64,000 nucleotides of DNA from an uncultured Hyphomicrobiales bacterium (GTDB lineage: Bacteria; Bacteroidota; Ignavibacteria; Kapaibacteriales; UBA2268): contig CAZWLN010000009.1 in NCBI GenBank assembly GCA_964634885.1, positions 17,735 through 81,734 of the forward strand, in the 5' to 3' direction. The position numbers were made by a program, and so were the translations under genes. Below are positions 29,233 to 48,770 of the stretch, piece by piece (position 1 is the stretch's first letter; each line of letters starts with the position of its first letter). Below the pieces are notes generated by a model that worked only from the letters and a program-made list of their open reading frames with translations, searched no databases and was not told where the DNA came from.

Positions 29233-30780
29233 TCATCCTTTCTTCTTTTTCTCTCTGAAAGCTCTTTGTTTTTCTGTCCCGGGTGACTGTTTCAACAACC
29301 TGTCAACTTCTGCCATGTTTCCATTCGAAAGTCCTCTGGCTTTCAACCTGATCATTTCGATATATTCATCCAGGGCAACCGACAACGGAAGTTCCGGCAA
29401 TGTTGTCTCCGTATCTTCTTCTTTGAGTATGTCTGTAATAAACCGTTCTGGTAAGTCATGCAGGTGAATAATACCTGTACTGAAACGCCGGAATACTCTT
29501 TTTATCCACTTCTCTAACTCCCTTATATTCCCAGGCCAATCATAATCCATAAGCTTTTCGGTCACACTTTTGTCCAGGATTATCGGCGAAGAAAGAAAAA
29601 ATTGCTTATAATATAATTGGATGAAGTAATCGATTAGTAAAGGGATGTCCTGTCTATGCTCCCGCAATGGTGGTAACAATACGACTTCATCGAACCGGTC
29701 TTTCAGATCGGGGGCAAACAGGGTAGAATCATTGACATTCTTATTGGTGGCGGCTATGATTCTGGTTCCAACTTTCGTTATCTCTGCCGAGCCAAGACTG
29801 CGCACCTCCCCGTCGTTTAAAAACCTTAGCAATGTGTTCTGGCCCTCTTTGGGCATATTACCAATCTCGTCGAGGAACAGGAACCTGTTTTCGGCTTGCT
29901 TTATTATCCCGGGACTTTCCTTATCTGCTCCCGTAAATGCTCCTTTTTTGTACCCGAACAATTCTGCTGCTATCAACTCTCTGGGCAGGGTACCGCAATC
30001 TAGAGTCAACAGGTTGACATCCGATTCGTTCCTGTACAATCTCCAGATTGAATTGGCTACTACTTGTTTGCCGGTACCTCTTTCACCTAATATCAAAACA
30101 GATGTGTTATTGTTAATGTCGTAGAGTATTTGTTCCTTGATCTCTCTAACATTGTCGGATTGGCCGATTAATTCAGGAACCAATAAGTCTAATTCGTGAG
30201 ATGCCAGTTTCTGTACCAGAGCCTTGTTCTCTCTGGTTACCAATGTAAGTTGCCGTTTAATAGCTGAAGGGGCTTCGATGTGAGGAAAGTCATCGATGTT
30301 GAGGTTGACCTCTTTGATATTCGACCTTTTGTCTATGGCAAACCTTGACTCGAATGACTGGATTAACCTGGCATTGGTGATTATACCTGCCTGGCTCAGC
30401 AATATCCAGCAGGCTGTCATTGTGGGAGTGCCCGATGTAATATTGATAATCTTCTCTGCCTGTAAAAAACCGGGGCTGGTATTCAATTCCTGGACTTTGT
30501 CCAATAAAAACGGATAGACAAGATCGTAGTCAATCGGGTTGGGCAGGCTGACAGAGACAATACAAACATTGACTGCCGGGTTTATTGCTTCCATTACAGA
30601 CATATTCTCCAAAGCAATGGAATGATAGCTGATTAGCTCGGACTTCTTGTCGGGAGTAACAAACAGGTAGACCTGTTCAATCTTCTGGGAATACTTCTGA
30701 AATATCGAGAGAACTGCTCCGTATTCGTTTGAGCCGCGCTCAATTTTATCATGATTGCCAATGAAAGAGAGATATTTCAT
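29233..30780 (-). CDS. RtcR-like sigma-54-dependent transcriptional activator: N-terminal CARF-like sensor domain plus AAA+ sigma-54 interaction domain
   Basis: AAA+ bEBP motifs (GERGTGK, ELFGYKKGAFTGA, GAFEGSAEIT-like, GNIRELE); N-terminal region aligns by eye to E. coli RtcR CARF domain (NITSGTPTMTACWILLSQAG...ARLIQS vs HITTGTHVAQICWFLLAEA...ARLIQS). Confidence 0.75.
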   Translation of the reverse strand: MKYLSFIGNHDKIERGSNEYGAVLSIFQKYSQKIEQVYLFVTPDKKSELISYHSIALENMSVMEAINPAVNVCIVSVSLPNPIDYDLVYPFLLDKVQELNTSPGFLQAEKIINITSGTPTMTACWILLSQAGIITNARLIQSFESRFAIDKRSNIKEVNLNIDDFPHIEAPSAIKRQLTLVTRENKALVQKLASHELDLLVPELIGQSDNVREIKEQILYDINNNTSVLILGERGTGKQVVANSIWRLYRNESDVNLLTLDCGTLPRELIAAELFGYKKGAFTGADKESPGIIKQAENRFLFLDEIGNMPKEGQNTLLRFLNDGEVRSLGSAEITKVGTRIIAATNKNVNDSTLFAPDLKDRFDEVVLLPPLREHRQDIPLLIDYFIQLYYKQFFLSSPIILDKSVTEKLMDYDWPGNIRELEKWIKRVFRRFSTGIIHLHDLPERFITDILKEEDTETTLPELPLSVALDEYIEMIRLKARGLSNGNMAEVDRLLKQSPGTEKQRAFREKKKKG

Positions 30781-31784
30781 TTTTTATTATTTATTGGTTG
30801 ATATTTACCTGAATTAATCTTATTAGCAAGTGCTTCATTCATTATTGTCTGAATTTTTTCAAATTTCTCATAAATTATTTTTATACTATCTTGACTATTA
30901 TTCGGAATAAATGTATCTAATCCTCTATTCAACTCAGCCCCTAGTATGTTGTTTAATGTTATATACCTTTCATGTGTAAAAAATGAACTCTTGTTACAAA
31001 AGATTAATTCTACTTTTAAATTTGAAATGTTTTCAATAATAGTACTTATCTTACTATATCTATCATCAGTAGTTTCATTATTATTTCTTGATACCTGCAG
31101 GCTTGCTAATCTTGTGATAAGTGTAAATTTAACTTTATTATTTACCAATGAAATTGCATCAGCAAACTGTTTTAGACCATTTTGATAGTTATCATTCCAT
31201 TTCTCAAAAACATTTCTATCAATCAACACTACTTCAGGGTAAGATATTTGTAATTTGAGAACATTTGACCAAAAAGATATGATTTTATTCATGCCATCGT
31301 CGACAGAACTCGGTTGGGAACAAGAATAACTTGTTTCTAAGCATTTATGATATAGTTCAGAATCATCATATTTATTCATATTTATTGTATTTATACCAGG
31401 TATATTTAAAGAACTATCGAATGTTACAATATAATGTGGTAAATCATTATTTTTTTGATTAATAGCTTTGACGTTATTAATAACCGAACATTTCTTACAA
31501 TCACTACAATCACAAACTGAATCTATTATCTCTTGTTTATCCCAGAAAAATTTTTTCCAAAGTATCTCCAATTTTTTCTTTGGCTCATCTTCGAGAACAT
31601 CCTTTAAATCTAAATATTTTTTAGATAAAGTATTATACGCTCCTTCTTCTATGCAATCAATCCAAACAGTTTGCTTAGTAATGGTGCTAAAAAATGAATT
31701 AACTCTTTGCAATAATAAGTCGGCTTCATCCTCAGTAGAAGGTATATCTAGAATACTAGAATCGATTGTAATGGTTGAAATCAT
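30777..31784 (-). CDS. Hypothetical protein (Cys-cluster CDCSDCKKC), partner gene immediately downstream of the ATPase
   Basis: 335-aa ORF overlapping stops/starts with both neighbours; no confident domain call. Confidence 0.5.
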   Translation of the reverse strand: MISTITIDSSILDIPSTEDEADLLLQRVNSFFSTITKQTVWIDCIEEGAYNTLSKKYLDLKDVLEDEPKKKLEILWKKFFWDKQEIIDSVCDCSDCKKCSVINNVKAINQKNNDLPHYIVTFDSSLNIPGINTINMNKYDDSELYHKCLETSYSCSQPSSVDDGMNKIISFWSNVLKLQISYPEVVLIDRNVFEKWNDNYQNGLKQFADAISLVNNKVKFTLITRLASLQVSRNNNETTDDRYSKISTIIENISNLKVELIFCNKSSFFTHERYITLNNILGAELNRGLDTFIPNNSQDSIKIIYEKFEKIQTIMNEALANKINSGKYQPINNKK

Positions 31785-33427
31785 TAAATCATTTCCTCAT
31801 AACGTTCATCAAAAAAACCGTTAGGCCATTTTGAAGAGAATCTACCTCTTTCATCAATATTGATTTTTGTACAAACTAGCCCATTAGTACTTGATTCAAA
31901 AAAGTAAATTGAAAGGAACTTCTGTTCAATTTGTAGCTTAATTTCTTCATTTTTGCCTTTTATTGTTTCCTTAATACGTCTTAGCAGCCTCAACATCAAG
32001 TGCTCGCTATGGGTTTCAATGAGAAATCTTAATTCTGGTTTTGTATTGATTTGTTCTATAAATAGATCGCCCAAATCTACTTGCATTTTCGGATGAGTGT
32101 GTAGTTCCGGTTGTTCGATAGCTAAAATTGAATTGTTCTGATAAATGGCAGCTACAATAACTGGTATTATCTGTGAAATTCCAACACCAATGTCTATAGG
32201 TTTCAGTTCAATAGTGTTTTCTATGTCTTTTATAAATAAGTCAGTCAAGACATCGGAATTCATCAGAAAACTTTTCAAATCATCTTCATCGACAACTATA
32301 CCCTGAATGATTTTCCTGTGTATATCAGAATCTGTATTCAGAAGTCTATAATCCTTTTTGGCAATCTGATAACCAGTGTCGAATTTTTGCAGCCAACTGT
32401 TTACTTTGTCGAATAGGTCCACATCTCCGTTTCTTAATACTTCCCATGCTAATAGTCCATTTGACCAGTTGACATTACCAGAATTGTGTTTTGAAAAATG
32501 ATGCCTATCCAGAATTTCTCTTAGTGGACCAACATAATTCATTTTACTCAATTCATTGGTCAGATATTCACCAAGACCAACGAAAATTATGTTTAGTATT
32601 TGATGAAATATCTTTTTTTGTTTATTAATATTTTCAAACTCAGCTTTATGATAGTCAGTGAGCTCGTTTACCGGTTTTCTGAATATCAAATCATCAAATG
32701 ACAGAGCTTTTCCCCATATAGGTACTGCTGTCTCTTGCATTAAAACTTCGATTTCATTGAAAACTACATCGCCATTCTCTCCATATACATTGGAATTTAT
32801 AATACAGTCATAAATTTGCAGGAGACGTTGCGATGGATATGAATTGCCTTGCTCATTAGCGTTCATATTATCATTGTCAAGAAATACATTATGATGCAAA
32901 TTCAATTTTTCAACTAATAGGTTTTCCCTCCCACCAGGATTATTCTCTATGATTGAGCCAAAGTGTTCATTATTAAACCCTACATGGTAATTTACTCTGG
33001 GCTTTTCCGTACCATAATCCCAAAAGACTTCCAATTCAATATAAGCCGAATCGATGCTTTCTCTTAAATGTGAGATCAGATTTTCCGGGTCTTCATTGTC
33101 AAGTTCTTGTTCAAAATAAAAATCAAAATAGGGTAACTGCGATGATTTGACATCAAAATCTATTCTTATAATAATTCTATTCTGCAAAATCTGATTATTA
33201 ACAACATTTCGAAAACCTCCGTAATCAATGATATTTCCTCCTAATTCTATCCTGTCAGCCGCGCAGTTCTTATTGAGGAGTATCTCCCTTGCATAATGCA
33301 TTGCCTGGAACACTGTACTCTTACCGGCGCTGTTGGCGCCAAAAAGCAGGGTAATCGGCTTCAGGTCGATTGTTACACCCGGGCTGCCGATACCCTTGAA
33401 GTTCTCGATATAGATTTTTGTTATCAT
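31784..33427 (-). CDS. ABC-type / OLD-family-like ATPase (AAA_15/AAA_21-like) of the kind found in Septu, PARIS, AbiEii and RloA systems
   Basis: Walker A LLFGANSAGKST at N-terminus, distant signature-like GISQIIP, Walker B ILAIEQPELHTHP, H-loop ETHSEHL near C-terminus; no nuclease domain within the protein. Confidence 0.75.
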   Translation of the reverse strand: MITKIYIENFKGIGSPGVTIDLKPITLLFGANSAGKSTVFQAMHYAREILLNKNCAADRIELGGNIIDYGGFRNVVNNQILQNRIIIRIDFDVKSSQLPYFDFYFEQELDNEDPENLISHLRESIDSAYIELEVFWDYGTEKPRVNYHVGFNNEHFGSIIENNPGGRENLLVEKLNLHHNVFLDNDNMNANEQGNSYPSQRLLQIYDCIINSNVYGENGDVVFNEIEVLMQETAVPIWGKALSFDDLIFRKPVNELTDYHKAEFENINKQKKIFHQILNIIFVGLGEYLTNELSKMNYVGPLREILDRHHFSKHNSGNVNWSNGLLAWEVLRNGDVDLFDKVNSWLQKFDTGYQIAKKDYRLLNTDSDIHRKIIQGIVVDEDDLKSFLMNSDVLTDLFIKDIENTIELKPIDIGVGISQIIPVIVAAIYQNNSILAIEQPELHTHPKMQVDLGDLFIEQINTKPELRFLIETHSEHLMLRLLRRIKETIKGKNEEIKLQIEQKFLSIYFFESSTNGLVCTKINIDERGRFSSKWPNGFFDERYEEMI

Positions 33428-33438
33428 GGCTTGATTAT

Positions 33439-33924
33439 TTAGTTAGTGAATAATTTGTTGAAATCCTTTATAAGCATTAGTACAAAAAATACCAATATAC
33501 TTCCAAATAATGTAATTATCTGCCATTTCAATAACTTGTATGTCCTTCTGCTGCATCTTTTTGAAATATTCCTGAATTTCTTGAAATTGTGCTCTTTGTA
33601 TCTCCGGTATTTCCATAAAGTAATTTTTGCGGTTATCCGAAAGTCTTTCAGCCGGTTGGTAACGCAGCAGATGCCAATAATTATTGAAGCCAATATAATA
33701 GATATGCCCAATAGGTAAACTATCGATTCGATAGTATTAAGGTTCAATGAGCTATCGTTCAGGACGCTCAATTCATAGCCGAGAATACCTATTGCAAAAG
33801 TCAGGAACAAATTGATTGTAAACGACAATTGTTTGATGCGGTAGTCCTGCCACCTGGTAAAGGACTCTTTTTTACTCTTTGTTTCTTCCACTGTTAACTT
33901 CTCTTCATTAGTTGATTGATTCAC
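33439..33924 (-). CDS. Small membrane protein (3 predicted TM helices) embedded in the defense array
   Basis: 161-aa ORF with three hydrophobic stretches; overlaps hsdS stop by 4 nt. Confidence 0.5.
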   Translation of the reverse strand: MNQSTNEEKLTVEETKSKKESFTRWQDYRIKQLSFTINLFLTFAIGILGYELSVLNDSSLNLNTIESIVYLLGISIILASIIIGICCVTNRLKDFRITAKITLWKYRRYKEHNFKKFRNISKRCSRRTYKLLKWQIITLFGSILVFFVLMLIKDFNKLFTN

Positions 33925-35075
33925 AGCTCCCCTCTGAAAGCTCTTTGCATCAGTGAATTGAAAAGGTTGTCGCTCTCGGTTAACTGTGCTTGTAGTTTTG
34001 CTTTTAGTTCTTCGATCTTTGTTACAATATCAGCAAATTTGGTTTGTAAAGTAATTGGAGGATAATTTATTGGCCATATTTTAACAATACTAGTATTAAC
34101 TACTCCGTGGGCTGACCCTACCGAATAGCCATAAAGACTACTTTTCCCAAAAGTTAAATTCATATAGAAAGCTATAAATAAAGATTGGAATTTAGTATCA
34201 GAACCAACTACAATAATATTAGCACAATTTGCACCGTCTAGTTCATATGGTACTACTGCGACCATACCCCTATTTACTCCAACTCTTGATATTAAAATAT
34301 CATTAGCATGGATTATAGAATTTTTTAATTTATTATGAAAATCTGTTGATATATAATGTAAATCTTGATAAGTGATTTTCATAGGTCTTATATTCTGAGT
34401 TCTAAGAAATGGAATACCATCCTGTCTATAACCATCAGTTGTTGGTCCAACATGCCCCACAACAATTCTATTAGTCAATTCACCGAGGTTTCTCACTTCC
34501 CAGCCCTTCGGGTTAGTCACCGGGTCTCCAAACATATCGAGAAAGACAGAACGGAGGTATTCATCGCACAATTTCAAGCTCTCACGTAGCTTCTGCCTTA
34601 TTTCGTCCGCTTTGTCAAGAATGGCGGCTATGCGGATCTGGTCCTCGAGAGAGGGGAGTAGAAGTTCCAAATTCTTAAGGTCATCTTGAGTTATCGCATC
34701 AAATGTTGAACCTCTACCACTAGAAGACAATTTAGACTCAATACTTCTAAAAAATCGAAATATAAAATTAAAGTCAACACCTTCTTTTACTCGTATTGCA
34801 CTTAATCCTCTCCCAATACATGCTTTTTGGTTACATATATTGGTTGGGCCAACTGGAGCTCTTACAGAAATAAGTATATCATTTGGTAATGCTATTTTTA
34901 AAGGGATAGAGCACCATTGTCTAATGTTTGGATAAATATAACCAAAATCAGACTTGCCTTGAAAAAAAGGTAATCCTATACAATCATTGTTATATGTTGA
35001 AGACGGTGGCGATTGACCAGCAATTATATCACAAATTTCTTTTAATTTTACTATTTTCATACTTAATTTCTTCAA
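33921..35075 (-). CDS. hsdS: Type I restriction-modification specificity subunit
   Basis: 384-aa protein with two target-recognition-domain-like halves separated by conserved coiled-coil spacers; position downstream of hsdM; typical HsdS blocks (GIPFLRTQNI..., LPSLEDQIRIA). Confidence 0.75.
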   Translation of the reverse strand: MKKLSMKIVKLKEICDIIAGQSPPSSTYNNDCIGLPFFQGKSDFGYIYPNIRQWCSIPLKIALPNDILISVRAPVGPTNICNQKACIGRGLSAIRVKEGVDFNFIFRFFRSIESKLSSSGRGSTFDAITQDDLKNLELLLPSLEDQIRIAAILDKADEIRQKLRESLKLCDEYLRSVFLDMFGDPVTNPKGWEVRNLGELTNRIVVGHVGPTTDGYRQDGIPFLRTQNIRPMKITYQDLHYISTDFHNKLKNSIIHANDILISRVGVNRGMVAVVPYELDGANCANIIVVGSDTKFQSLFIAFYMNLTFGKSSLYGYSVGSAHGVVNTSIVKIWPINYPPITLQTKFADIVTKIEELKAKLQAQLTESDNLFNSLMQRAFRGEL

Positions 35076-35833
35076 TTCAATAAATTAGTTTGACCATCTT
35101 CCAACATTGGAATATCCGGGATAGAAGCTCCTGCTTTACCTTTCATAATTTCAACAAGATATGCAATCCTTTTATTACTCATATTCCTATTATCAAAGAA
35201 TGGAGCAAGTATCAACAATGATTTCTTAGTATCCAGCTCAATTTGTTGATATTCAAAGCAATCTTCTCTTTGAAAATTTTCTTTTTGAGTAACAAACAAC
35301 TCTCTATAATCATTCCAGTGTCCAATGCCAAAACATATGATAAAAGTTGGTTTGTGTTGATTAATATACTGTAAAACTTTTTGCTTTCTTGTTTTCATAA
35401 AGTCCTTGTAGTAGTATTCCTCAGTCATTTCTAATTCTTTTAAAATTTCTGGTGACAACATATCAGTATTCTTATTTCTGCCAATTGGATATAAATTAAT
35501 TTGGAAATTAGAACCCTTTTCAAAAAATAAATATTTATTTATGTATTCTCTTGGTTTTATTTTAATGTTATTAAATGATGTAATAGTTTTTGCCATAATC
35601 GTATAAACACTTGTAAATTTACCACTAAAGCCTTTTTTATTCTTATTCTCCCTAAGTTCTGCCAAATCACTCTCATACCAATTTTCTCTCATTTCCCAGT
35701 CATAAGATTCGGAAATTTTACCAATCTTATCTATTTCGGGTACTTTTGCCTCCTCAATACCAATAAACCAATAATCACTCTCAGGATTACCCATTCCAAT
35801 ATAATTGAGTAAGTTATTACACTTGTCGTTCAC
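35072..35833 (-). CDS. Hypothetical protein inserted between hsdM and hsdS
   Basis: 253-aa ORF overlapping both neighbours by 1-4 nt; no recognisable motifs. Confidence 0.5.
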   Translation of the reverse strand: MNDKCNNLLNYIGMGNPESDYWFIGIEEAKVPEIDKIGKISESYDWEMRENWYESDLAELRENKNKKGFSGKFTSVYTIMAKTITSFNNIKIKPREYINKYLFFEKGSNFQINLYPIGRNKNTDMLSPEILKELEMTEEYYYKDFMKTRKQKVLQYINQHKPTFIICFGIGHWNDYRELFVTQKENFQREDCFEYQQIELDTKKSLLILAPFFDNRNMSNKRIAYLVEIMKGKAGASIPDIPMLEDGQTNLLN

Positions 35834-37329
35834 TACAACATCTCCACTAATTCTTCAATATTAGAAATAATTTCATTTTCCAGTGTTTTCATTTTGCTGA
35901 TAATCACAGAAGGCGCCTCATACTCTTCTTCCTTGTGGACAATTTCCTTGTACTTGTTAATAGACAGGTCGAAATTGTTAGCAACTATTTCACTTTTGTC
36001 CACAGTAAAATGCTTTTGGGTTTTGTCGTTGTTTTCAACCTCGAACCTGTTGTTCCACTTGCCAATGCAGTCAGGTATGTCGCTGCCTTCGACCGGTTGG
36101 CGTTTGTCGTCCAGGGAAAAACCGTCATTGCCCAGGTCATAGAACCAAACTCTATTGGTCTCGCCACCCTTCGTAAGTATCAGAATGGCTGTCGAAACCC
36201 CTGCGTAGGGTTTGAAAACCCCTGCCGGAAGTTTGATAATACCTTCGAGCTGATTCTTCTCGACAATTAGTTTCCTCAGTTCAATATGAGCGTTGGAAGA
36301 CCCGAACAAAACACCGTCAGGCACTATTGTGGCGCATCTGCCCCCGAGTTTTAGCATTCTGAGCATCAGCACAATGAAGAGTAGTTCGGTTTTCTTTGTT
36401 TTTACCTTGCTCAACAGGTCTTCGGCAACATCTTCGAAGTCGAGACTGCCTTTGAAAGGTGGATTGGCTAAAATAGCGTCGAAATAGTTCCCGGACAATG
36501 AAGGTTGTTTGTCGGCAAATGACTGGCTTAACGTGTCCTGGTATATAATGCCCGGGGAGTCGATGCCGTGGAGCATCAGATTCATGGCGGCAATTCTTAA
36601 CATTGTAATGTCGAAATCGAAGCCGTGGAGCAATTCTTTTTGCACATGTTCTCTGTACTTTTCGAGCAAGTCTTCCGAATAGGAAATATGTCCGTCTTCA
36701 TGTGTATATTTTCCCTTTTCAGAAGTGTATTTTACTTTGATGAATTCTCGTGTTTGCATTAGAAAACCGGCAGTACCACAAGCAGGGTCGCCGATTCTTT
36801 CGTATGGTTTTGGGTCGATAACATTGACCATAAGGTCGATGATATGGCGGGGAGTACGGAACTGGCCGTTAATACCCGCTGTTGTAAGCTTACTTAGCAG
36901 GTATTCATACAAATCGCCCTTGGTGTCGCCTTCAGTCAAAGGCAATTTGTCGATCATCTCAACGGCAGAAGACAGCAGGCTTGGTTTCTGAATCAGCAAT
37001 TGAGCGTCTGAAAGATAGACAGAAAGCCCGTTGCCAATTTCTTTAAAATGGGGAAAAACTTTATCCCGAACCAATTTGAGCATATTTTCGGGTTCAAGAT
37101 GAATAAAATTCGACCAACGTAAATCTTGATTATCAGAATTAAATTTGCCTTCGTGTTTTAGTTTTAAACGCTGAGCTTTCTTTTCTTCACGAGTTTCATT
37201 GATATCGATCAGCCGTATAAACATTAGAAATGTTATTTGCTCGATTACCGTCAAAGGATTGGTAATTCCACCAGTCCAGAATTCTTCCCAAAGCTTGTCT
37301 ATTTTACTTTTCAATTCACTATTCATCAT
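35833..37329 (-). CDS. hsdM: Type I restriction-modification DNA methyltransferase subunit (N6-adenine)
   Basis: N-terminal HsdM_N-like region, [12 protein letters not shown], catalytic NPPF ([10 protein letters not shown]). Confidence 0.9.
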
Positions 37330-40300
37330 TTATTTTCCTATGCTATTAATTGTTAACCTATTGTCTTTGAGTATGGTAAAAATCTCTTCCACCATAGTTT
37401 CATTGTTGAAAATGCCTTCAACACCTTCAGTGTCCAAAGAAGTAAATGGCGATTCGTACAGTTTTTCAAGTTTAATACACCCATACATGCCGATATAGTT
37501 CTTAAGCATATTCAGAAAAGCTATTTGATTTCCTGATAGCTCTGGATGATTTGCTACAAAGCTCTCAAAATAAGAATTTACAGCTTCTGCTTCAAGACCA
37601 ATAATTCTTCGTATTGCCAAATCCAGGTACCCCGCGGTGTCGGGATAGAATTCATAAAGAATATTAATATCAACATTTGGATATTTTGTGAGAACAAGGG
37701 AAACAAGTGAGTTAAGCTCATCCTGAGTAACAAAGGCGCCTTTTTTAATCTTTTGTAAAACAACGCTTTCATTGAACATCTGACAGAGAGCTTTTTCCAC
37801 CCTTTCTTTATATTTAATCATTTCCATACCCGGCATTTTGGGTATGTATTCCTCATGTTTAACCTTATCGGGATTCTCTGTAATATCGATTGTTTTCGAT
37901 TCGCTTATTAGTGGTACTTCAGACTCTTTGAACTGCATCAATCCACGCAATTCTTTTCTGATTTCTTCCAGATTGTTAAATTGTATCGTATCCCAATATT
38001 CAGCACTCAATACTTTTTTAATTACATCAGATTTTGTTCTTACCTGGTATAAATTCCTTTGTAGTAATGAAACTTCATTTATGATATCATCTCTGAAACT
38101 CTCAAACAAATTTGTATTTAGAATGAATTCTGTTTGTGATTGAGTAAGAAGAATATCAAACTTTACTGCTTCAATATGGCCAGCGATATTAATCCACCTC
38201 ATCAATGGAGCTATTTCATTCTTTAAAATATTAATAGTAGACTGATCGAATCGTTCAATTACACCATCTTGCTTCATCAGGTTGACTTCTCTCCACCTAT
38301 CTTTGACGGCAATAGATTTCAACGAATCCAGTGTATTAATATCTTTTTTAATGAGATCGACAATATATTTGAATTCATCTTGTTGAAACTTTTCAAGTGC
38401 GGTTTCGGCAAGTTTAATTCTCTGCAAAAACAATCTCTGGGATAAAGACATTGAGTCACTCACTTCTGCCGGTTTACAATTCAGATCGAACCATTCAAAA
38501 TTGCCCCAGTGGTCGAAAATTCTGAATTTTGTTTTATCAACCCCAAGCCCTAATAAATTAGGGCATAGCCTTGTCCCTCTTCCAATCATCTGCCAGAATT
38601 TGACGTATGATTTGATGGGTTTTGCAAATACAAGATTGACGACTTCAGGAATATCAATCCCGGTATCGAGCATATCTACCGATATGGCTATGGACAGCAA
38701 ATTGTTATTGCCTTTACCTTTGAAATCATCAATTAATTGTTCTGCTCGTGGGTCATAGTTATCTATAACCTGACAAAATTTACCGCCATACTGAGGAAAC
38801 ATTTCATTGAACAGGCTTTGCAATTGAAGAGCGTGTTTATGGCTCCGTGCGAAAATTATTGTTTTACCCGGGAGACTATCGGTCGCATCTTTAATTCCTT
38901 TCTCCATCAGATTTCTTATAATCTCACGGTTTGTATCTTTGTTGTATATAAATTTGTCTATATCATTAGAAGTATAATCGAATTCTTCAGCATTGGCAAC
39001 CTGGTCTTCGAGTTCTTTTTTTTGCTCGATGGTCAAATTGGCGTACTTTATACCTTCTCTTAAAAATTCAGTGGTATGATTAAACACTTCAAATGGCACC
39101 AAATATCCTTCTTTGACAGCCGTTTCATAATCGTAATTTGCAGTGGGGTCTTGATTGTCGCAATTAAACATAGAAAAAGTATTTCTGGCAATCAGGTCGA
39201 CAGGAGTAGCAGTTAACCCAATTTGATAGGAATCGAAGTAATCGAAAATATCCTTATAAACATTATAAATACTTCTGTGAGATTCATCGGCAATAATTAA
39301 ATCGAAGAAACCAACATCAAAAGTATCATAATACTTCAACATGGCTGGGTAGGTCGATAAATAAATTCTTTTATCTCTATTTTTATAGGTTCTGCTATTT
39401 ACAGTTGTCAGCGGAGTTGAAGGGATAAAATCGGTGAAAGCATTCTTGGCTTGTTTCCTCAATTCCCTTCTGTCGCATAGAAATAGAATTCTCTTAACCC
39501 AGTTCCCTTTCAATAGAGTGTCGCAAAGTGAAACGGCGACTCTTGTCTTACCAGTACCTGTGGCTTGAACAATAAGCGATTTTCTATTTTTCTGAGCGAA
39601 CTTTTCAATAACTCTTTTTTGTGCTTCCATTTGATAGAGCCTGTTAGCTATTGAAGGATTTGCTTCCAGATTGAGACTGTCTGTTCTGTTTTCCCTTTTA
39701 AAATGTAGGTATGTCAAACTATCTTTTGAATAAAACCCATGGATTTTTCTTGGTGGTTCGTTCTCTTTATCATTCCAAATATAAATATCAAACCCATTGG
39801 TATAAAATATTACAGGTCTTTTCCCAAACTTTCTTTCAATAGCATCAGCATAGAGTGTAGCTTGTTTTTTACCAATGTCAGGGTCTTTTGAGGTTTTTTT
39901 TGCTTCGATTACTGCCAATGGCTTGCCATCGTCACCAATGAGTACATAATCAACGAACCCTTTCCCAGTTTCCGTTGGCTGTCCGTCAACTTCATATTCT
40001 ATTTCAATATCGGAATTTTCCGATGAACCATCATTAAATGCCCACCCTGCAATAGAAAGTTGTTTGTCGATAAGGAATTGTCTTGTTTGCTCTTCATTCA
40101 GATCGAGTAAAACAGCAACTGATTTGCCTTTATTTTTAATTGTTTCGCTCTCAATATCGGTTAAAGGTGTTATACTGGCTTTTTCTTCCTTTTTATTTAA
40201 ATTTTGAATTAGTTGTTCAATGATTAATTCTTTTTTATTTAACTCTGCCTGCAATTTTGGCTTATTAATATCAGCCATTGATTTTGTTTTATCAGGCAAA

Positions 40301-40704
40301 ATGAAACTATTTATATTCTGGGGCTCGGTCTGATAAAATACTATCATTAGCCACTTAGAAATAATATATGCAATATTAAGAAGCTTTTTGGCTTCTGTTT
40401 CATTTACCGATTCACCATGAGCCGCTTTATTTCCGGACAATCTCAGAAGGTGAAGATTTGATATAATAGAACTCTGAATTTGTTCATTTTTGTTTAGAGC
40501 CTCTAATAAGGAGAAAAGATTTTTTTCTTCTAAATACTCCAATTTCAAATTATTGTATAGAACCCTTACATACTTTTCTGCAAAAGTTCTTAATTTAATA
40601 GCAGTTACAGATGAATCCAGAAGCAGATACTGTTCAGCCAATTCTCCCAGAGCTGATAATTCTGGGAGTTTTTCTTTTAAAAAAATAAAATTGTTGTCTG
40701 CCAT
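37330..40704 (-). CDS. hsdR: Type I restriction enzyme R subunit with N-terminal DUF4145-like domain
   Basis: Helicase motifs [11 protein letters not shown] (Walker A) and IIADESHRS (DEAH); 1124 aa; immediately upstream of hsdM. Confidence 0.85.
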
Positions 40705-40738: not shown

Positions 40739-40754
40739 TACAATTGGTATGCCA
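40739..40754 (-). promoter_or_regulatory. Weak sigma-54-like -24/-12 element TGGCAT-N5-TTGTA about 35 bp upstream of hsdR start (imperfect -12: GT instead of GC)
   Basis: Reverse complement of 40739-40754 reads TGGCATACCAATTGTA; spacing to hsdR ATG compatible with a promoter. Confidence 0.25.
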
Positions 40755-41401
40755 GAAAAACATACTCTGGATTTTATATAATTGTTATATTATCATAACC
40801 ATTACGATATCAATCATATACCTGCAAATTACAATTTATTTTTACATTTTTTTAAAATATTCTTTCAAGTAACGTTCGATACTATTCACAGTAACAAACG
40901 TTACCAGTCGATGCAAAAATACTAATATAAAATTATTCATATTCAAAAAAAAGAAGATGCTTAACTAGCATTACCAGTCCAATAACTAATATCCCCTTAT
41001 GGTGAAAATTGGACTTCCATCATAATGAAATATTGTTGATTACCATATCAAAATTGACCGTAACAATACAGTTATATTGATGAAGTATTCTCCCCCCCAG
41101 AATATTGGACACAAAGTATAGTTATTTTATGTCCAAGTTTCAAATTCGAGTGTAGCAGCATAAATATTATTACTACACTTGTTATCAGTATGTTGTTAAT
41201 AATACTATATCCAATAGTAATGTAGAGCTTATCGATGCTCTTTCCGCCGTCTTATAAAAAATAGGAAACGAAAAGAGTATCATCAAATCAATACATATTA
41301 ACCATCGGTCATATTCATACTCATGTTGTCGGTTCCGTATTAAGCCTGGTACCGCTTTAAGTAATCATTTATTTATATATCTTACCATACCATTGCTCAG
41401 G

Positions 41402-44400
41402 TTACTTTACTATTACAAAGCTCTTACTGATCAATTGTGTCGGAGTTCTCAGTATCACATAATACATACCAGACTCAAGAGTATCGGTATTAAATTGCAT
41501 CGATGACTCTCCCGGCTTCGGTATACCCGAAAATAGTGTCTTGATTTCCTGAGCAGTCGAATTGAACAATTTAATAGTGGTGTAGCCTTCTTCAAGAATG
41601 TTATAGTCAACTGTTACCTTTTCATTTGCCGGATTAGGAGTAATGCTTGTGATGCTTACCTTATTTTCAGAAGCAGTTACGAGCCTGGAGCCGCCTTCTC
41701 GGCATATTTCGAGCCTGATTAAACCATTATTCGTTTTGTAAATAAAACCTTTTGCCAAGCCCAAAATGCTTGTCGAATCGAGATTGAAAGCTATTGTTGT
41801 TGAATCCCTGTCACCGAGGCCTATTTCAAAAGGTATGTAGATTTTATCTCCCAGGAATATGTTCTTTGGTAAGAATAGACTTAGCTTCTTACCGAAATAA
41901 TTTGTCTCATTGAAGTGTTGACCGGCTCGAACAACACCGCTAATATCATGATCTGACATTATTGTTGCATTGAATGAAACCTCCGTATTTATTCCGTCAG
42001 ATACATCATACAAATCTTTGACAGGCATAGAAAGGTAAAACGGTACTTGCACTATATCCCCTGGCTTTGCGGTAATCGTATCAGACTTCAGTACAATCTC
42101 ATAGAGCTTGTCTAACAAGGAGAATACTGCAATGCTGTCCTGTGTATTGCATTGCTTAGTGAAAATATAGGAGCCTTTGAAACTAATATCTTCGCCAACA
42201 AATTGAACAGTAACATCTGAACTGCCACCAGCCGGTGTAGGATTGGGTTCAATTTTGCTAATAACAAACCTTGTATCGTTAAATTTAACTGGTGGATTGG
42301 GCCAATAAAGAGCTGTGTTGCCATAATTGCTTATCTTGCACTGAACCTGCCTCTGTTCACCGGTTTTGACGTCGTAAGCCAAAACAGAATCGGGGGTTAC
42401 CTCCCAATCATAGACAAGGTAATTGCCGCAAATACTCATTTCCTTAGGCGAATCGGGGGAATTGTAATAAATCATCAGTTTACTGCACACTTTGCCGGTA
42501 TCGACAGGAGTGAAGCGGATTGTCAGTTTCTTATCTTCGTGGCTTTTCAGGACGAATGGATAGGACAGGTTGTCACTGATTCTAAAGATATTATCATTCG
42601 GAGAAAACACCAGCGAATCAATACGAGCATCTGTTTTTTGGTAATTGACAATCGTTGTGAATGACTGCTCTTTGTAATCGGTTGTGTCGCACGGTTTCAC
42701 CAATTCTATAGTCTGGCCGTAACCTGCCTGGAGTTCGCACTTGACGCCTTCGCCCTGGAATGTCACTATCTCGGGAGAGCTTATACCTTTGTGATAAAAA
42801 GCATACTGGCAGGTGCTTATTCCCTGCTGGACTGGTTTGTACTCTATCCTGATATTGTGCGTATCTCCGGCTGCTATTACAAAGCTCCCGCCGCCTGAGA
42901 CTATCTCAAACTGGGCATCATCGGGGCCGAGTTCAACTGTCGAGTCAATTTGAGAGTCCGAAGCTCCCCTGTTGTAGAGTACTGCCGCTAAGGTGTCAAC
43001 TTTTTCGCCGAGGCAGACATTGATGAAATTATATGCCGGGGTTATGTTTTGGATGTTGCAGTCAAGGGCTTCTCCGGTTATATCTTTAGGAATAACGCCA
43101 TAATTGCTGTAAATATTAATTTGTGCAGTTTTGATGCCCGGAGTCTTAGGCTGGAAGCTGAATTTCACTTTCAGCTTTTCTTTTGGCTTCAGTGTAACCG
43201 GCAATGTTTGATGGACAAGTTCAAAGTCAGCCGCATCAATCCCGGAAATTCCTATTGAATCAATCCTTACATCGAAAACATCATTGTTAACAATGTAATT
43301 ATCAATTATCTTCTCTTTTGGTTCTGTCCAGTTGGCGCAGTGCTGGAGCATATCTACATCACTTGTCGTAATCTTTGGGAGAATGATTGAGAACAGGGTG
43401 TCGGACTTGTCAAGGTTTTCTATGTCTTTAACCCTGAAAATCCTAATTGTACCGTCCTCACCTCCACCTGCAATCCAGTTACTGTTTGGATGCCATGATA
43501 TATAAACTCTCCAATAATGAAATGGACTTATAAACTTAATATATTTATAACTAATTGCATCAATTATTTGAATATTACCATCACTTCCACCTATAAATTT
43601 CCCATCAGGACTATAGGCTATTGAATATCCTGAATATCCTGGAAAATCTAAATGTGTAAGTATTAATCCTGATTCCGTATCCCAAATAGTAATTCCAGTA
43701 TGCCAACCTCCACCTGCAACTTTATTCCCGTCGGGACTCCAGGCTACTGAATTAACATCATCATCATGTCCGATTAATGTCATTAGTTCGGTACCTGTTT
43801 TTGCATCCCAGATTATTATTGTCGAATCATAACTTCCGCTGGCAATTCTACTGCCGTCGGGACTCCAGGCTACTGAATTTACATAACGATCATGTCCCGT
43901 TAATGTCATTAGTTCAGCGCCTGTATTTGCATCCCAGATTTTTATTGTCCCTTCATAACCTGCGCCTGCTATTATTCTACTACCATCGGGGCTCCAGGCG
44001 ATAGAATTTACCCAATCATTATGTCCTGATAGTGTCATTATTTCGGTACCTATTTTTGCATCCCAGATTTTTATTGTCTCCCTACTTCCACTTGCTATTC
44101 TACAGCCGTCGGGACTCCATGTTACTGAAATATCATAACCATGATGTCCCGTGAATGTCATTAGTTCGGTACCTGTTTTTGCATCCCAGATTTTTATTTC
44201 CGAAAAACTTCTACTTGCTATTCTACTGCCGTCGGGACTCCATGCTACTGAATTAACCCAATCATTATGTCCCATTAATGTTATTAGTTCGGTACCTGTT
44301 TTTGCATCCCAGATTTTTATTGTTTCATCACCACTACCACTTGCTATTCTACCGTTGTCAGGACTCCAGGCTAATGAATTTACATAACGATCATGTCCCG

Positions 44401-46654
44401 TTAATGTCATTAGTTCGTTGCCTGTTTTTGCATCCCAAATTTTTATTCTTGCATCATCACTACCGCTTGCTATTCTACTGCCGTCGGGACTCCAGGCTAC
44501 TGAATTAACATCATCATTATGTCCTATTAATGTCATGATTTCCGTGCCAGTTTTTGCATCCCAGATTTTTATTGTTTCATCATCACATCCACTTGCTATT
44601 CTACTGCCGTCGGGACTCCAGGCTACTGAATTAACCCAATCATCATGTCCCATTAAGGTCATGATTTCCGTACCTGTTTTTGCATCCCAGATTTTAACTG
44701 TAGAATCATAACTACCGCTTGCTATTCTACTGCCGTCGGAACTCCAGGCTACTGAACAAACATTACTATTATGTCCCTTTAATGTCATTAGTTCGGCGCC
44801 AGTTTTTGCATCCCAGATTTTTATTGTCTCCCTACTTCCACTTGCTATTCTACTGCAGTCAGGACTCCAGGCTACTGAAAATTCATTACCATATATATCA
44901 TTTAATGTGATTATTTCACTACCTGTTTTTGCATCCCAGATTTTTATTGTCTCATAACTTCCGCTGGCTATTCTACTGCCGTCGGGACTCCAGGCTACTG
45001 ATCTAATTTCATAATCATGACCGCAAAGAGTGTCTATTACCTTAGCCGTACTTAAGTCCCAGATATAAAGGCAGTCTGAACCACCTGCGCTTACTAATTT
45101 TGTACCGTCAGGGCTAATATCTATACATTTAACAATGCCATAACCAAATATCTTTCCATCAACAAGCTTTTGTGGGTTGTCGTCCTTGTACACTTTAATA
45201 AGGCAACTGTCGGACTGCAGGTAAGGCAGCTTCCAGGTGTAGTGCAAACCGCTTGCCGCGTTGGTAATCAGCTCCCAGGTTTTACCCCCGTCGAGGCTGT
45301 ATTCTATTGACACAGTGTCGTCCATCCTGCCTTCCCAGTAAATGGTAGTGTCGGTTCCGGCAAGCAGCTTTTCGAACCCGTTTGGCGATTCAACGATTAT
45401 ACTGTCCGATGCGAGTGGGTCGTAACTCAGGAAAGAAACGACATGATTGCCGCAAAGTTCTTTTTCAATAATAATATTTCCGAACTCAGCCGAATCGACC
45501 TGTGGATTGTATTTTACCCGGAACGACCTTTCTTCTCCTGTTCCCAGGGTAAATGGCGTATTCGTGCTGCCGACAATGGAAAACGCAGGATTGGTTCGGG
45601 TAATATTTGTAATTGTAACAGGGTAGTACTCATTTTTCAAAGTAAAGGTAACAGTCGTATCGCCTGAACCTAAAGGTATCCTTTCGAACACAAATGAACC
45701 GGGAGATACATTAGTAACGATTCTCGATTTGGAATAGGCCCAGTACCTTAACGAAGCCTGGGCCGGCAAACTTTTAAGATTGACTGAAACATTACGGTAT
45801 TCATTGCATGTAGGTTCGCTTTTCCAGATAATCTCGCATCCGGCGCCACCGCTGCAACCGGATATACCGGCTAATTTTTTAAAAACCGACGTTGCTTCCT
45901 GAGCATTAGAGACATGGAAGTAAAACCCGTCGGTCATTGAAGTAATCGCATCGATGAACTCATTGGCCTGTCCGTTTATTATTACAACAAAAATCTTCGC
46001 TTTCAGTTCATTTGCCTTTTTAATAATTTCCTGTTCATTGCCTTCCGACATGCCGTCGGTAACCAGAATGATTCTTCTTGCATACTTTGCTCTCTCTGCC
46101 ACGAGCAATGCCCCGTTCAGCGGATCGATCAGGGCCGCATCGAATTTTGTGCCCCCGTTAGCTGTTAATGATTCAAATGACTTCTTCAACTGGCTTTTGT
46201 CAGTTGAAAAATCATTGACAAGGAAGTTCTTATGGTTAAAGGCAACAATTGCACATTCGGGACCTCCCGCAGGCAACATATCTATATAGATTTCGGCAGC
46301 CAGCTTTTCCTGGGGTAGCTTCTGCCCGCGTGTCGAACCGGAGATGTCCATTACCAGAATGCCGGAGTAGTTTCCACCGGGACACATCCCTCCTTCAGAA
46401 CAGTACACGCTTACAATCTCTGCTTTCCTGCCGTCTTCAACGATTTCAAAGTCATTGGGCGAAACGTCGAAAACCAGGTTGTCGTCTTTGTCGAAAGCAT
46501 AGAAATTAGCGCTGGTATAGGGGAAACCATAGGGCAGCACTTTAAAAACAGAAATCTGCTGTGCATTTGCCGATGCAATGCCAAGTATTGCGAATAATAG
46601 ATGCAAAAGCTTTTTCATACTATTCCCTATATTAATATTCAATTGGATTTTCAA
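41402..46654 (-). CDS. Giant vWA-domain / WD40-repeat (about 14 blades) / Ig-like protein with T9SS C-terminal sorting domain; true start probably M at 46620 (MKKLLHLLFAILGIASANA)
   Basis: vWA MIDAS (VMDISGST...TDGMSEG); tandem WSPDGSRIASGS...IKIWDAKTG repeats; CTD ...SGMYYVILRTPTQLISKSFVIVK. Confidence 0.8.
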   Translation of the reverse strand: MKIQLNINIGNSMKKLLHLLFAILGIASANAQQISVFKVLPYGFPYTSANFYAFDKDDNLVFDVSPNDFEIVEDGRKAEIVSVYCSEGGMCPGGNYSGILVMDISGSTRGQKLPQEKLAAEIYIDMLPAGGPECAIVAFNHKNFLVNDFSTDKSQLKKSFESLTANGGTKFDAALIDPLNGALLVAERAKYARRIILVTDGMSEGNEQEIIKKANELKAKIFVVIINGQANEFIDAITSMTDGFYFHVSNAQEATSVFKKLAGISGCSGGAGCEIIWKSEPTCNEYRNVSVNLKSLPAQASLRYWAYSKSRIVTNVSPGSFVFERIPLGSGDTTVTFTLKNEYYPVTITNITRTNPAFSIVGSTNTPFTLGTGEERSFRVKYNPQVDSAEFGNIIIEKELCGNHVVSFLSYDPLASDSIIVESPNGFEKLLAGTDTTIYWEGRMDDTVSIEYSLDGGKTWELITNAASGLHYTWKLPYLQSDSCLIKVYKDDNPQKLVDGKIFGYGIVKCIDISPDGTKLVSAGGSDCLYIWDLSTAKVIDTLCGHDYEIRSVAWSPDGSRIASGSYETIKIWDAKTGSEIITLNDIYGNEFSVAWSPDCSRIASGSRETIKIWDAKTGAELMTLKGHNSNVCSVAWSSDGSRIASGSYDSTVKIWDAKTGTEIMTLMGHDDWVNSVAWSPDGSRIASGCDDETIKIWDAKTGTEIMTLIGHNDDVNSVAWSPDGSRIASGSDDARIKIWDAKTGNELMTLTGHDRYVNSLAWSPDNGRIASGSGDETIKIWDAKTGTELITLMGHNDWVNSVAWSPDGSRIASRSFSEIKIWDAKTGTELMTFTGHHGYDISVTWSPDGCRIASGSRETIKIWDAKIGTEIMTLSGHNDWVNSIAWSPDGSRIIAGAGYEGTIKIWDANTGAELMTLTGHDRYVNSVAWSPDGSRIASGSYDSTIIIWDAKTGTELMTLIGHDDDVNSVAWSPDGNKVAGGGWHTGITIWDTESGLILTHLDFPGYSGYSIAYSPDGKFIGGSDGNIQIIDAISYKYIKFISPFHYWRVYISWHPNSNWIAGGGEDGTIRIFRVKDIENLDKSDTLFSIILPKITTSDVDMLQHCANWTEPKEKIIDNYIVNNDVFDVRIDSIGISGIDAADFELVHQTLPVTLKPKEKLKVKFSFQPKTPGIKTAQINIYSNYGVIPKDITGEALDCNIQNITPAYNFINVCLGEKVDTLAAVLYNRGASDSQIDSTVELGPDDAQFEIVSGGGSFVIAAGDTHNIRIEYKPVQQGISTCQYAFYHKGISSPEIVTFQGEGVKCELQAGYGQTIELVKPCDTTDYKEQSFTTIVNYQKTDARIDSLVFSPNDNIFRISDNLSYPFVLKSHEDKKLTIRFTPVDTGKVCSKLMIYYNSPDSPKEMSICGNYLVYDWEVTPDSVLAYDVKTGEQRQVQCKISNYGNTALYWPNPPVKFNDTRFVISKIEPNPTPAGGSSDVTVQFVGEDISFKGSYIFTKQCNTQDSIAVFSLLDKLYEIVLKSDTITAKPGDIVQVPFYLSMPVKDLYDVSDGINTEVSFNATIMSDHDISGVVRAGQHFNETNYFGKKLSLFLPKNIFLGDKIYIPFEIGLGDRDSTTIAFNLDSTSILGLAKGFIYKTNNGLIRLEICREGGSRLVTASENKVSITSITPNPANEKVTVDYNILEEGYTTIKLFNSTAQEIKTLFSGIPKPGESSMQFNTDTLESGMYYVILRTPTQLISKSFVIVK

Positions 46655-48770
46655 TTATTATTTCTACGGTCCTGGAATAGAACCTGCCTTCAGGTATTGA
46701 GTTGTCGAAAAGCTTAACATTGCTGCCAACACCCTTGAACTTTGCCTCCCAGAATTTGATGTTCCTGTATGTAGTTTCTGCCCTTACCGATGACAGGAAC
46801 TGATTCTGTTCATCAGAGCCTGTAATGTCGGTAAAACCTGTTATTTCAACTTTCGAATTTATATTAATCCTGGATTTGATATAATTGACAATGCTTAAGT
46901 TCCTGTCGGTAATTTCTCCGGAATTGAAATCAAAGAGAATCAGGTTATATTTTTCAATTTCTTTATCAGCAAGTTTTTCAGATTGCTTTTGTTTGATTGA
47001 AGTAACCTCAAGAGGAACCGACTTTTCATCGGTAATTACTTTCTTCTTTCTTTTGTCCTGGACAGATAGCTGATACTTCATTGCACCGGTGGCAAAGTCA
47101 ATTTGGTTTTTCATGTCAATTAGATTAATATCAAAATATTGTTTTACATCTCTATCAATTTCAATAGGCCTTAAAGCGTTATTATTGAAATTAATATTAA
47201 TATAGCAATATTCAACGCCGATTTCTGACTGAACATCAGCTTGGAACCTTATTACCTCCGGATTGAAAATATTCTTGATATCAGTAATAGTAATGGGTTC
47301 CAAAATCTGTGGGGAATCCGGAATAATTTCAACTCTGCGGTTTTCTGCAATTTTCTCAGTTTGATCAACCGGAGTAGAAGGTTTTTCCGGCAGTCCTCTA
47401 GCAATAATTCTGATTCTGCTGCCATCAATCCCCCAAACAGAAGTAAAATACCGTTTGATGGTTTCAGCTCTTGAGCGGGACAATTCTGTATTGCCTTTTT
47501 CAATTCCCACTCCACTGTTGCACCCTACAAGTGAAATTGAAGTGTTGGGATTCATCTTAAGCCGATAGCCGACAATGTTAAGTAAATCATAATAAACGCT
47601 AATTGTTTCAAACTTGCTGATATTCTTAATATCGAAATAGTTCGAATTCTTAATCATATTATATCTATATGGTATATCTGAGGAATTTTCATCAAAGAAA
47701 ACATAGTTAAGCAGTGGATGCATTTGAGTGAACTGGAACTCTTCTATTTTAATTCTGTCAACCGGCTTGACAGCAATGGATGAATCAACTGTAAATACAC
47801 GAATTGAAGCAGAAAGTGCAAAATCTCTAGGTGTGAAAACCGTATCAGTACTACTTATAATTTCTTCCACATAAATCGTATTCTCTACTTGCGTTTCGTT
47901 ACTATCAATAAACTCTTTTCCTTTCTTGAAAGTATTTTCCAAAACAAAGTTATCCGTCAACACGACCGTATCATTTCTGTATATTTTCTTATACTCGTAA
48001 ACAGGAGGCTTCCATGGTTCGGGAGAATATACAATTGATAAACCTGCATAAAGTGTATTGATCTTCCAGGAGTATCCATCCAAAAAGTTGTTCAATCCAT
48101 ACCTGTATCCAATCAGAGGGCTAATAAGCAGGGTATTTTTTTTATTTAGTGGAAAATCATACATTACAGCAACATTAGCATGCAATAGAACAGATTGAAC
48201 GCCTTCAATTTCTCCTGAATTCAGGTTGCGTGTCATACTATTTGTATTATTGCCATTTTCGTCAACAAAAGTAGCCATACCAGAAGGTTTGGTAATCCTT
48301 TCTTCCTGGGAATAATCCTTCTGAATTGGTATTGACAAACTTATTCCTGAGATAATAAACAACCTGTCAAACAACTTTAAAGAAATCTTGGGTTCAAATG
48401 ACAGCATAGATAATTCTGCATCAATTATATGTTGAAATTCTCCGACATTCATACCTCCATTATAGTAGATGGTTGTTGGCTCCAAAGCCTTTAACTGGCC
48501 GTTGAGATTGCTGTACACCAGATTTGTTCCAAGGTAAAAGGTATTGAATATAGCATGATCATAACTAAGACCGATGAAAAATGACTGTCCGGATCCATTT
48601 CCGAATTTCGGACAACAATTAGGAACACCAGGCAACGCCCTGAAGTCTGTGTAATGTTGATTGAAGTTCACGCCTCCGATTACACCGATTCGCATATAGT
48701 CATTGCAAAAAAGTAAAGTACAATTAAAAATTGTAAATACAACTATTTGAAACAATACTTTCATTAACAT
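46632..48770 (-). CDS. OmpA-family outer-membrane protein, 712 aa, paralog of 27076-29214
   Basis: Signal peptide; NCCPKFGNGSGQSFFIGLSYD block; C-terminal GFTDITGSDEQNQFLSSVRA...IPEGRFYSRTVEIII. Confidence 0.65.
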   Translation of the reverse strand: MLMKVLFQIVVFTIFNCTLLFCNDYMRIGVIGGVNFNQHYTDFRALPGVPNCCPKFGNGSGQSFFIGLSYDHAIFNTFYLGTNLVYSNLNGQLKALEPTTIYYNGGMNVGEFQHIIDAELSMLSFEPKISLKLFDRLFIISGISLSIPIQKDYSQEERITKPSGMATFVDENGNNTNSMTRNLNSGEIEGVQSVLLHANVAVMYDFPLNKKNTLLISPLIGYRYGLNNFLDGYSWKINTLYAGLSIVYSPEPWKPPVYEYKKIYRNDTVVLTDNFVLENTFKKGKEFIDSNETQVENTIYVEEIISSTDTVFTPRDFALSASIRVFTVDSSIAVKPVDRIKIEEFQFTQMHPLLNYVFFDENSSDIPYRYNMIKNSNYFDIKNISKFETISVYYDLLNIVGYRLKMNPNTSISLVGCNSGVGIEKGNTELSRSRAETIKRYFTSVWGIDGSRIRIIARGLPEKPSTPVDQTEKIAENRRVEIIPDSPQILEPITITDIKNIFNPEVIRFQADVQSEIGVEYCYININFNNNALRPIEIDRDVKQYFDINLIDMKNQIDFATGAMKYQLSVQDKRKKKVITDEKSVPLEVTSIKQKQSEKLADKEIEKYNLILFDFNSGEITDRNLSIVNYIKSRININSKVEITGFTDITGSDEQNQFLSSVRAETTYRNIKFWEAKFKGVGSNVKLFDNSIPEGRFYSRTVEIIIENPIEY

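Follow-up and report, generated by a model that had tools for sequence, protein, structure and literature searches.

A probable Menshen-type ATPase-effector pair without NsnA at the end of a type I restriction-modification operon, adjoined by an RtcR-like CARF/sigma-54 regulator

We analysed a 64,000-nucleotide (nt) stretch of contig CAZWLN010000009.1 (GenBank assembly GCA_964634885.1), hereafter the window, whose own positions are used throughout. In it, two overlapping genes encoding an ABC ATPase and a partner protein end a type I restriction-modification (R-M) operon and are followed by the gene for an RtcR-like regulator. An earlier reading made from the letters alone (the sequence-only reading) had singled out three open reading frames (ORFs), encoding a transmembrane (TM) protein, the ATPase and the partner, as a candidate defence module, and the ORF list contains all three with the boundaries that it had claimed. 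The flagged ORFs are all on the minus strand, and the genes, with their lengths in amino acids (aa) and the sources of their assignment, are in order:

37330-40704, minus strand: hsdR (ORF list, Pfam)
35833-37329, minus strand: hsdM (ORF list, Pfam)
35072-35833, minus strand: 253-aa ORF without an assigned family (ORF list)
33921-35075, minus strand: hsdS (Pfam Methylase_S; PADLOC Specificity_I, 1.3e-86)
33439-33924, minus strand: TM protein, 161 aa, GTG start (ORF list)
31784-33427, minus strand: ABC ATPase, NsnB-like, 547 aa (ORF list, Pfam, PADLOC)
30777-31784, minus strand: partner, NsnC-like effector, 335 aa (ORF list, Pfam, AlphaFold model)
29233-30780, minus strand: RtcR-like regulator, CARF plus sigma-54 AAA+, 515 aa (Pfam, PADLOC, NCBIfam)

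These genes are tightly packed, with overlapping or near-touching junctions: the ATPase stop and the partner start have one base in common (TAATG), the partner stop and the regulator start overlap by 4 nt (ATGA), and the TM protein gene is spaced 11 nt from the ATPase gene. HsdR, HsdM and HsdS are encoded together at 33921-40704, as in a type I R-M system, and the ATPase-partner pair forms the tail of this operon; neither this arrangement nor the RtcR-like CARF/sigma-54 regulator had been mentioned in the sequence-only reading. Independent gene calls on two further assemblies of this contig include the ATPase and the partner both times, and the 161-aa ORF in one case only (JGI). Because of these calls and of many homologues with low E-values (more than 4,500 for the ATPase, down to 1e-195, and 18 cluster representatives for the partner, down to 8e-62 in a full HMMER search), the ATPase and partner ORFs are, as judged from sequence, real genes and not chance ORFs. 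A word-index search with the 335-aa partner recovered only the protein itself.

As had been described before, the ATPase has an N-terminal Walker A motif (GANSAGKST, residues 30-38), a Walker B motif (IEQPELHTHP, 437-446) and an H-loop (ETHSEHL, 471-477), all of which fall within invariant columns of a 24-sequence alignment, and Pfam detected no nuclease domain in it. The protein is built around an SMC/Rad50-class head with a Walker B of the form hhhhEQ, a GxGxSQ signature and a C-terminal DUF3696 tail (Pfam families AAA_15, AAA_21 and DUF3696). Its best PADLOC match is NsnB of the Menshen system (1.2e-47), ahead of a HEC-03B-labelled model (1.7e-31), AriA (1.2e-18) and PtuA (6e-9), and the NCBIfam PtuA model scores 20.6 bits against a cut-off of 500; the resemblance to PARIS or Septu pairs that had been suggested earlier thus gives way to NsnB. 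MADS was rejected for the ATPase (MAD3, 24 bits against a cut-off of 420), as was RecF on its PADLOC and NCBIfam scores. The ATPase also matches phrog_21420, to which no function is assigned, at 1.9e-42, pointing to homologues in phage or prophage genomes.

The top structural matches of the ATPase are SMC and Rad50 heads, which would suit an SMC/RecF-like ATPase working outside defence, for example in DNA repair or chromosome maintenance. However, no coiled-coil insertion is present in the ATPase, the RecF match is marginal and the NsnB match is stronger than that of any other PADLOC defence ATPase model. Moreover, mobile DNA with R-M, BREX or other defence loci is the consistent setting of the pair and its relatives, and we give a housekeeping function next to no probability.

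A confident AlphaFold model divides the partner into an N-terminal PIN-like domain (residues ~1-175) and a C-terminal MIT_C/phospholipase-D (PLD)-like domain (residues ~180-320), the latter being matched by MIT_C (PF16565) at the Pfam gathering threshold and having the MIT_C fold. Invariant in this C-terminal domain are D189, H271, R273 and G288, joined in the eight closest members by D290; the partner motif reads H271-E-R273, and HDR in most homologues. The sequence-only reading had seen no TOPRIM or HNH signature in the partner, and indeed Pfam and PADLOC gave no match to TOPRIM/DUF4435 or HNH, while NCBIfam and PHROGs returned nothing; the new effector type that it had contemplated did not hold up, however, as the modelled fold is that of the published NsnC "inPIN + PB-PLD1" architecture, whose description it matches. 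The CDCSDCKKC cluster to which that reading had drawn attention spans residues 91-99. Of its cysteines, C91, C93 and C99 are conserved and C96 is not; a fourth conserved cysteine, C44, lies at a distance. This Cys4 set (C44/C91/C93/C99) lies within the PIN-like domain and is specific to the window partner clade.

The same data bear on the view that the module is PARIS- or Septu-like, with an AriA/PtuA-type ATPase sequestering a TOPRIM or HNH nuclease. AriA and PtuA do figure among the ATPase matches, but NsnB scores far better, and the partner bears neither the TOPRIM/DUF4435 domain of AriB nor the HNH domain of PtuB. Its PIN-like plus MIT_C/PLD-like fold largely refutes this view, which we consider very unlikely.

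We then turned to relatives, fetching 80 genomic loci that encode ATPase homologues, 79 of which have a full-length ATPase ORF and serve as the denominator below. A partner gene of ~300 aa overlaps or abuts the ATPase stop in 74 of the 79 loci, and 70 of these 74 partners belong to one BLAST family with conserved vDPyF, LHxRYILTD and GxGLD motifs. This common family is homologous to the window partner family (hhalign 96.4%, E 1e-9, 277 columns); it is recognised by no PADLOC model (three weak BrxL matches only) and gives almost no Pfam signal. The sequence-only reading would have been undermined by a partner found mostly without an adjacent ATPase, but in all contigs examined the partner family immediately follows the ATPase, and the proposal of an ABC-ATPase module that works with an effector encoded by a separate gene in a defence context is upheld; the effector gene is translationally coupled to that of the ATPase.

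Canonical Menshen consists of NsnA (ParB-DUF262 + ParBDB), followed by NsnB and NsnC (Li et al., NAR 2025, PMC12065111). An NsnA-like sensor gene is absent in 78 of the 79 related loci. The exception is L021, where an NsnA-like gene with DUF262 only immediately precedes the same ATPase-partner pair and thereby ties the family to canonical Menshen. In the window, none of the genes upstream of the pair (encoding the TM protein, HsdS, the 253-aa ORF, HsdM and HsdR) has a DUF262/GmrSD_N match. At the level of gene content, these counts show most of the closest relatives to have the NsnA-less form, which the published Menshen census could not have found because it was seeded on DUF262 (PMC12065111).

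HsdS is encoded upstream of the pair in 65 of the 79 loci and immediately adjacent to it in 47, with gaps mostly of 24 nt or less. Along with the missing presumed sensor NsnA and the precedent of PrrC/EcoprrI, this linkage argues for the pair being an accessory of type I R-M, either a PrrC-like guard that fires when R-M is inhibited or a modulator of restriction. By contrast, no hsdS is in view upstream of the pair in 14 of the 79 loci, an RtcR-like gene heads the pair directly in seven loci, and the P0004 contig, whose ATPase is 50% identical to that of the window, carries the pair beside BREX and without an R-M operon. Dependence of the pair on R-M is not established, because the pair occurs without R-M, as on this contig. 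The accessory role overlaps with an NsnA-less Menshen-type pair, the one point of difference being whether the pair needs R-M; as a claim of its own it is possible, but we hold it to be improbable.

Other genes embedded in the related loci are of defence type (RmuC, GmrSD, KAP NTPase, HNH and Schlafen/AlbA). An RmuC-family gene lies just before hsdM-hsdS-ATPase-partner in L035 (3083-4966) and in 15 other loci, mostly from Nitrotoga, an arrangement reminiscent of Shield/ShdA-type R-M associations; in 14 loci the island extends right up to aroA-cmk and rpsA.

The position between hsdS and the ATPase gene, held in the window by the 161-aa protein, is taken in relatives by unrelated soluble small ORFs. 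The three hydrophobic segments of the 161-aa protein predict the three TM segments that the sequence-only reading had noted, but its role as a conserved membrane effector of the module was rejected, the protein being absent from all related loci. Its sole homologue, a distant one among 5.8 billion proteins, sits amid small unrelated genes. It had no match in Pfam, NCBIfam or PHROGs, and the PADLOC PycTM model gave 0.0023 with no stretch passing. On this distribution, the protein is a lineage-specific orphan insertion and not a conserved part of the module. The 253-aa ORF (35072-35833) overlaps hsdM on one side and hsdS on the other. Its only match is a sub-threshold one to DUF6942, with PADLOC, NCBIfam and PHROGs yielding none, and none of the 80 related loci encodes a homologue.

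The 515-aa regulator encoded after the partner combines an N-terminal CARF domain with a sigma-54 activator domain (Pfam Csm6_CARF 2e-6, Sigma54_activat 1e-44, RtcR 1e-7) and is matched by the PADLOC model RtcR_PspF2--CARF_AAA_HTH at 1.1e-78. Its sigma-54 AAA+ domain has a GAFTGA loop and matches PspF in the PDB (6.7e-42). As the NCBIfam RtcR model scores 203.8 bits against an equivalog cut-off of 650, the protein is RtcR-like only, and neither rtcA nor rtcB was seen among the genes called around it. In the window clade, an RtcR-like gene follows the partner in 7 of the 8 other contigs that extend far enough. In L083, L085/86, L087, L094, L095 and L096 this gene (34-53% identity) stands immediately after a Cys4 partner, L094-L096 being three short loci from a metagenome scan with a narrower alignment that confirm the order ATPase-partner-RtcR-like; on the P0004 contig, too, it comes after the partner, and the lone exception, L088, has a transposase in its place. 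Earlier work had already placed RtcR-like regulators beside R-M systems (Makarova et al. 2014, PMC4012209) and at the start of CoCoNuT defence superoperons (Bell et al. 2024, PMC11090510).

In the larger clade, the RtcR-like gene lies upstream of the operon on the same strand in 22 loci, before hsdR in 15 and before the ATPase gene in 7. The sigma-54 promoter sequence TGGCAC-N5-TTGC, with at most one mismatch, starts 0-34 nt past the stop of this gene in 18 of the 22 loci (L004, L006, L009, L011, L012, L015, L017, L019, L024, L025, L028, L031, L036, L037, L048, L060, L065 and L070) and is perfect in 13, against a background of 131 such matches in 2.33 million positions. Its start is 0-4 nt past the stop in 15 of the 18 and 21-34 nt past it in L031, L048 and L065, and loci truncated on their upstream side likewise have comparable sigma-54 promoters before hsdR. 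At the sequence level, sigma-54 dependence of the whole hsdRMS-ATPase-effector operon in those larger-clade genomes is strongly supported. Since the promoter begins directly after the RtcR-like stop, the arrangement also implies a portable cassette of regulator and promoter, whose enhancer sites would necessarily lie inside the regulator coding region. In eight loci (L033, at 465-1373, and seven others) a WYL-domain protein replaces the RtcR-like regulator upstream of hsdR; because it occupies the same position, it suggests interchangeable ligand-sensing regulators for the same operon.

The window itself has one site at the corresponding place:

40740-40754, minus strand: weak candidate sigma-54 promoter TGGCATACCAATTGT, two mismatches, 36 nt upstream of the hsdR ATG

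We list this site because relatives have strong sigma-54 promoters at the equivalent position; it is not significant alone, with 47 such matches in the window versus 37 expected by chance. An inverted repeat, GTAACGTT...AACGTTAC (40869-40904, minus strand), which includes the palindrome GTAACGTTTGTTAC, lies ~115-165 nt upstream of TGGCATACCAATTGT, the distance expected for an enhancer-binding-protein site. Sigma-54 regulation of the window operon is what we infer by analogy with the larger clade. Alternatively, the regulator of the window clade may control genes downstream of itself rather than the pair, because in L096 a single one-mismatch sigma-54-like site, TGGCACGGTTTTGGC, lies after the regulator (near position 3063, ~105 nt past the RtcR-like stop).

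The whole defence locus is carried by a low-GC island of 41 kb (~30-36% GC versus 45-53% in the flanks), which is delimited by the following features:

9958-10004 and 51013-51059: perfect 47-nt direct repeats bounding the island, the second being the 3' part of tRNA-Thr(cgt)
51017-51090, minus strand: tRNA-Thr(cgt)
49702-50769, plus strand: tyrosine integrase

These are consistent with an integrative, horizontally mobile defence cargo integrated at tRNA-Thr. Just upstream of the integrase gene, at 49121-49199, are about six tandem 11-nt units resembling GCTTGTATTGT, which may be iterons or recombination-directionality sites. The island also carries a WD40-repeat ORF (41402-46654, minus strand; 1750 aa by longest ORF, 784-833 aa by gene callers) with 126-nt tandem repeats inside it at 43542-45002, and next to it an OmpA-like gene (46632-48770, minus strand).

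Taken together, the locus is best explained as an NsnA-less Menshen-type NsnB/NsnC pair that ends a type I R-M operon on a mobile island and is accompanied by an RtcR-like CARF/sigma-54 activator, a reading that we consider probable, with considerable reserve. Homology, fold and synteny show an ABC ATPase and an inPIN-PLD partner whose genes would be co-translated. An ATPase oligomer would hold the PIN-like domain of the partner through its DUF3696 tails and keep the effector inactive, as proposed on the basis of published AlphaFold 3 models of NsnB4-NsnC2 and by analogy with Septu, PARIS and Gabija. An infection cue would then shift the ATP state of the ATPase, and the effector would be released or activated. 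The most plausible cues are the type I R-M complex or phage anti-restriction factors, as for PrrC/EcoprrI and PARIS; with hsdS next to the pair and no NsnA, the most economical trigger would be the R-M complex itself or its being inhibited by phage proteins. Finally, the MIT_C/PLD-like domain (D189, H271, R273, D290) would cleave phosphodiester bonds of nucleic acids and abort the infection. It would probably do so as a dimer; single-HKD nucleases need to dimerise. In the related clades, though not in the window, the RtcR-like protein would drive the hsdRMS-ATPase-effector operon from the sigma-54 promoter just past its own stop.

Several points weigh against this reading. The ATPase is ~200 residues longer than the PADLOC NsnB profile (547 aa versus 345 positions) and may belong to a sister clade rather than being an orthologue, and the partner matches no PADLOC model, NsnC included. 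Pfam detected no helix-turn-helix domain in the C-terminal tail of the regulator, whose gene in the window clade comes after the pair, and the search for a sigma-54 promoter in this clade yielded nothing convincing (a two-mismatch site in the window, none in L085 and L087). The canonical HxK(x)4D motif is absent from the partner, which has HxR instead, with Lys replaced by Arg in a fold that is itself PLD-like, and the closest solved relative of this domain is the MIT_C domain of MITD1 (PDB 2YMB). That domain binds membranes, and we know of no demonstrated catalysis by it. Because of the HxR motif and of this nearest relative, catalysis by the PLD-like domain of the modelled partner is uncertain.

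The kinship with MITD1 would fit an MIT_C-like domain that is not a nuclease but binds or attacks membranes, or acts as a non-catalytic ligand sensor, the outcome being membrane-mediated killing or arrest, possibly with the 3-TM protein. Against this, the TM protein is conserved in no relative, and the Asp, His and Arg of the PLD-like domain are invariant across two very divergent partner families, suggesting catalysis or phosphate binding. PLD nucleases also score nearly as high as MITD1 on the partner structure (SauUSI 9.2, Nuc 8.8, Zucchini 8.3, NucT 8.0, BfiI 7.2), and most effector domain families at the NsnC position of Menshen are predicted nucleases (PMC12065111). We therefore judge a membrane-directed or sensory partner unlikely.

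If the NsnA-less Menshen-type reading is correct, the type I R-M complex (HsdM/HsdS on DNA) might replace NsnA as the sensor, and restriction and suicide, encoded in one operon, might form the two layers of an inducible immune unit, with a CARF/sigma-54 regulator that senses RNA damage as its gate. RtcR is controlled by RtcA/RtcB; in a like manner the regulator of the window clade, translationally coupled to the effector, might be controlled directly by the ATPase or effector binding its CARF domain. We offer this model as speculation, and as a whole it is doubtful.

Menshen is experimentally validated, and signalling from NsnA to NsnB is an acknowledged gap. Many NsnB/NsnC-like pairs without NsnA would offer a simpler two-gene system for its study, and their near-invariant position behind hsdS suggests a trigger from R-M complexes or anti-restriction factors. 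Likewise, the promoters right after RtcR-like genes lend sequence-level support to a proposal hitherto based on gene neighbourhoods, namely that a CARF sensor switches on whole type I R-M operons. As its models do not recognise the partner family, PADLOC v2 probably fails to report such pairs as a system. Precedents have been published for every component; what the literature searched does not appear to describe is their combination, how prevalent it is and the stereotyped regulator-promoter cassette.

Among known systems, MITD1 resembles the partner in its MIT_C domain but is a eukaryotic cytokinesis protein with neither a PIN-like domain nor an ATPase partner. PARIS and Septu differ in their effectors, which are TOPRIM (DUF4435) or HNH proteins rather than PIN-like plus PLD-like, and their sequence similarity to the window ATPase is mainly confined to the P-loop region. 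The window regulator shares with RtcR and RtcR-like regulators the CARF plus sigma-54 AAA+ architecture with GAFTGA, the association with R-M or defence operons and, in related loci, strong sigma-54 promoters; it is however not an RtcR orthologue, there being no rtcBA and no CoCoNuT, and in the window clade it lies at the 3' rather than the 5' end of the operon. PrrC/EcoprrI, a precedent discussed by Payne et al. (bioRxiv 10.1101/2024.01.29.577857), is likewise an ABC-ATPase-controlled nuclease inside a type I R-M locus that acts as a back-up when restriction is blocked, but PrrC consists of one polypeptide that includes an anticodon-nuclease domain, and its analogy to the window pair is functional only.

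HEC-03, an ABC ATPase plus a PIN protein embedded in Hma, is experimentally defensive and needs both genes (Payne et al., bioRxiv 10.1101/2024.01.29.577857). Like the window pair, it is a two-gene cassette of an ABC ATPase and a PIN-fold effector inside another defence system; its effector, however, is a VapC-like PIN protein without a PLD domain, its host system is Hma instead of type I R-M, and the window partner matches no HEC-03 model. Menshen differs from the window pair in having NsnA upstream of the ATPase and an NsnB profile ~200 aa shorter, and the window partner clade is set apart by its four invariant cysteines and the RtcR-like regulator linked to the pair. Nevertheless, Menshen and the window pair have in common an ABC ATPase with a DUF3696 tail, GxG in place of SGG and a non-canonical Walker B (E-Q in the window, E-N in NsnB), as expected of NsnB, and a downstream effector with an inactive PIN-like N-terminus and an MIT_C-like PLD C-terminus bearing Asp and H-D/E-R, as expected of NsnC. 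They also share a frequent linkage to type I R-M, and the relative in L021 has the full three-gene form.

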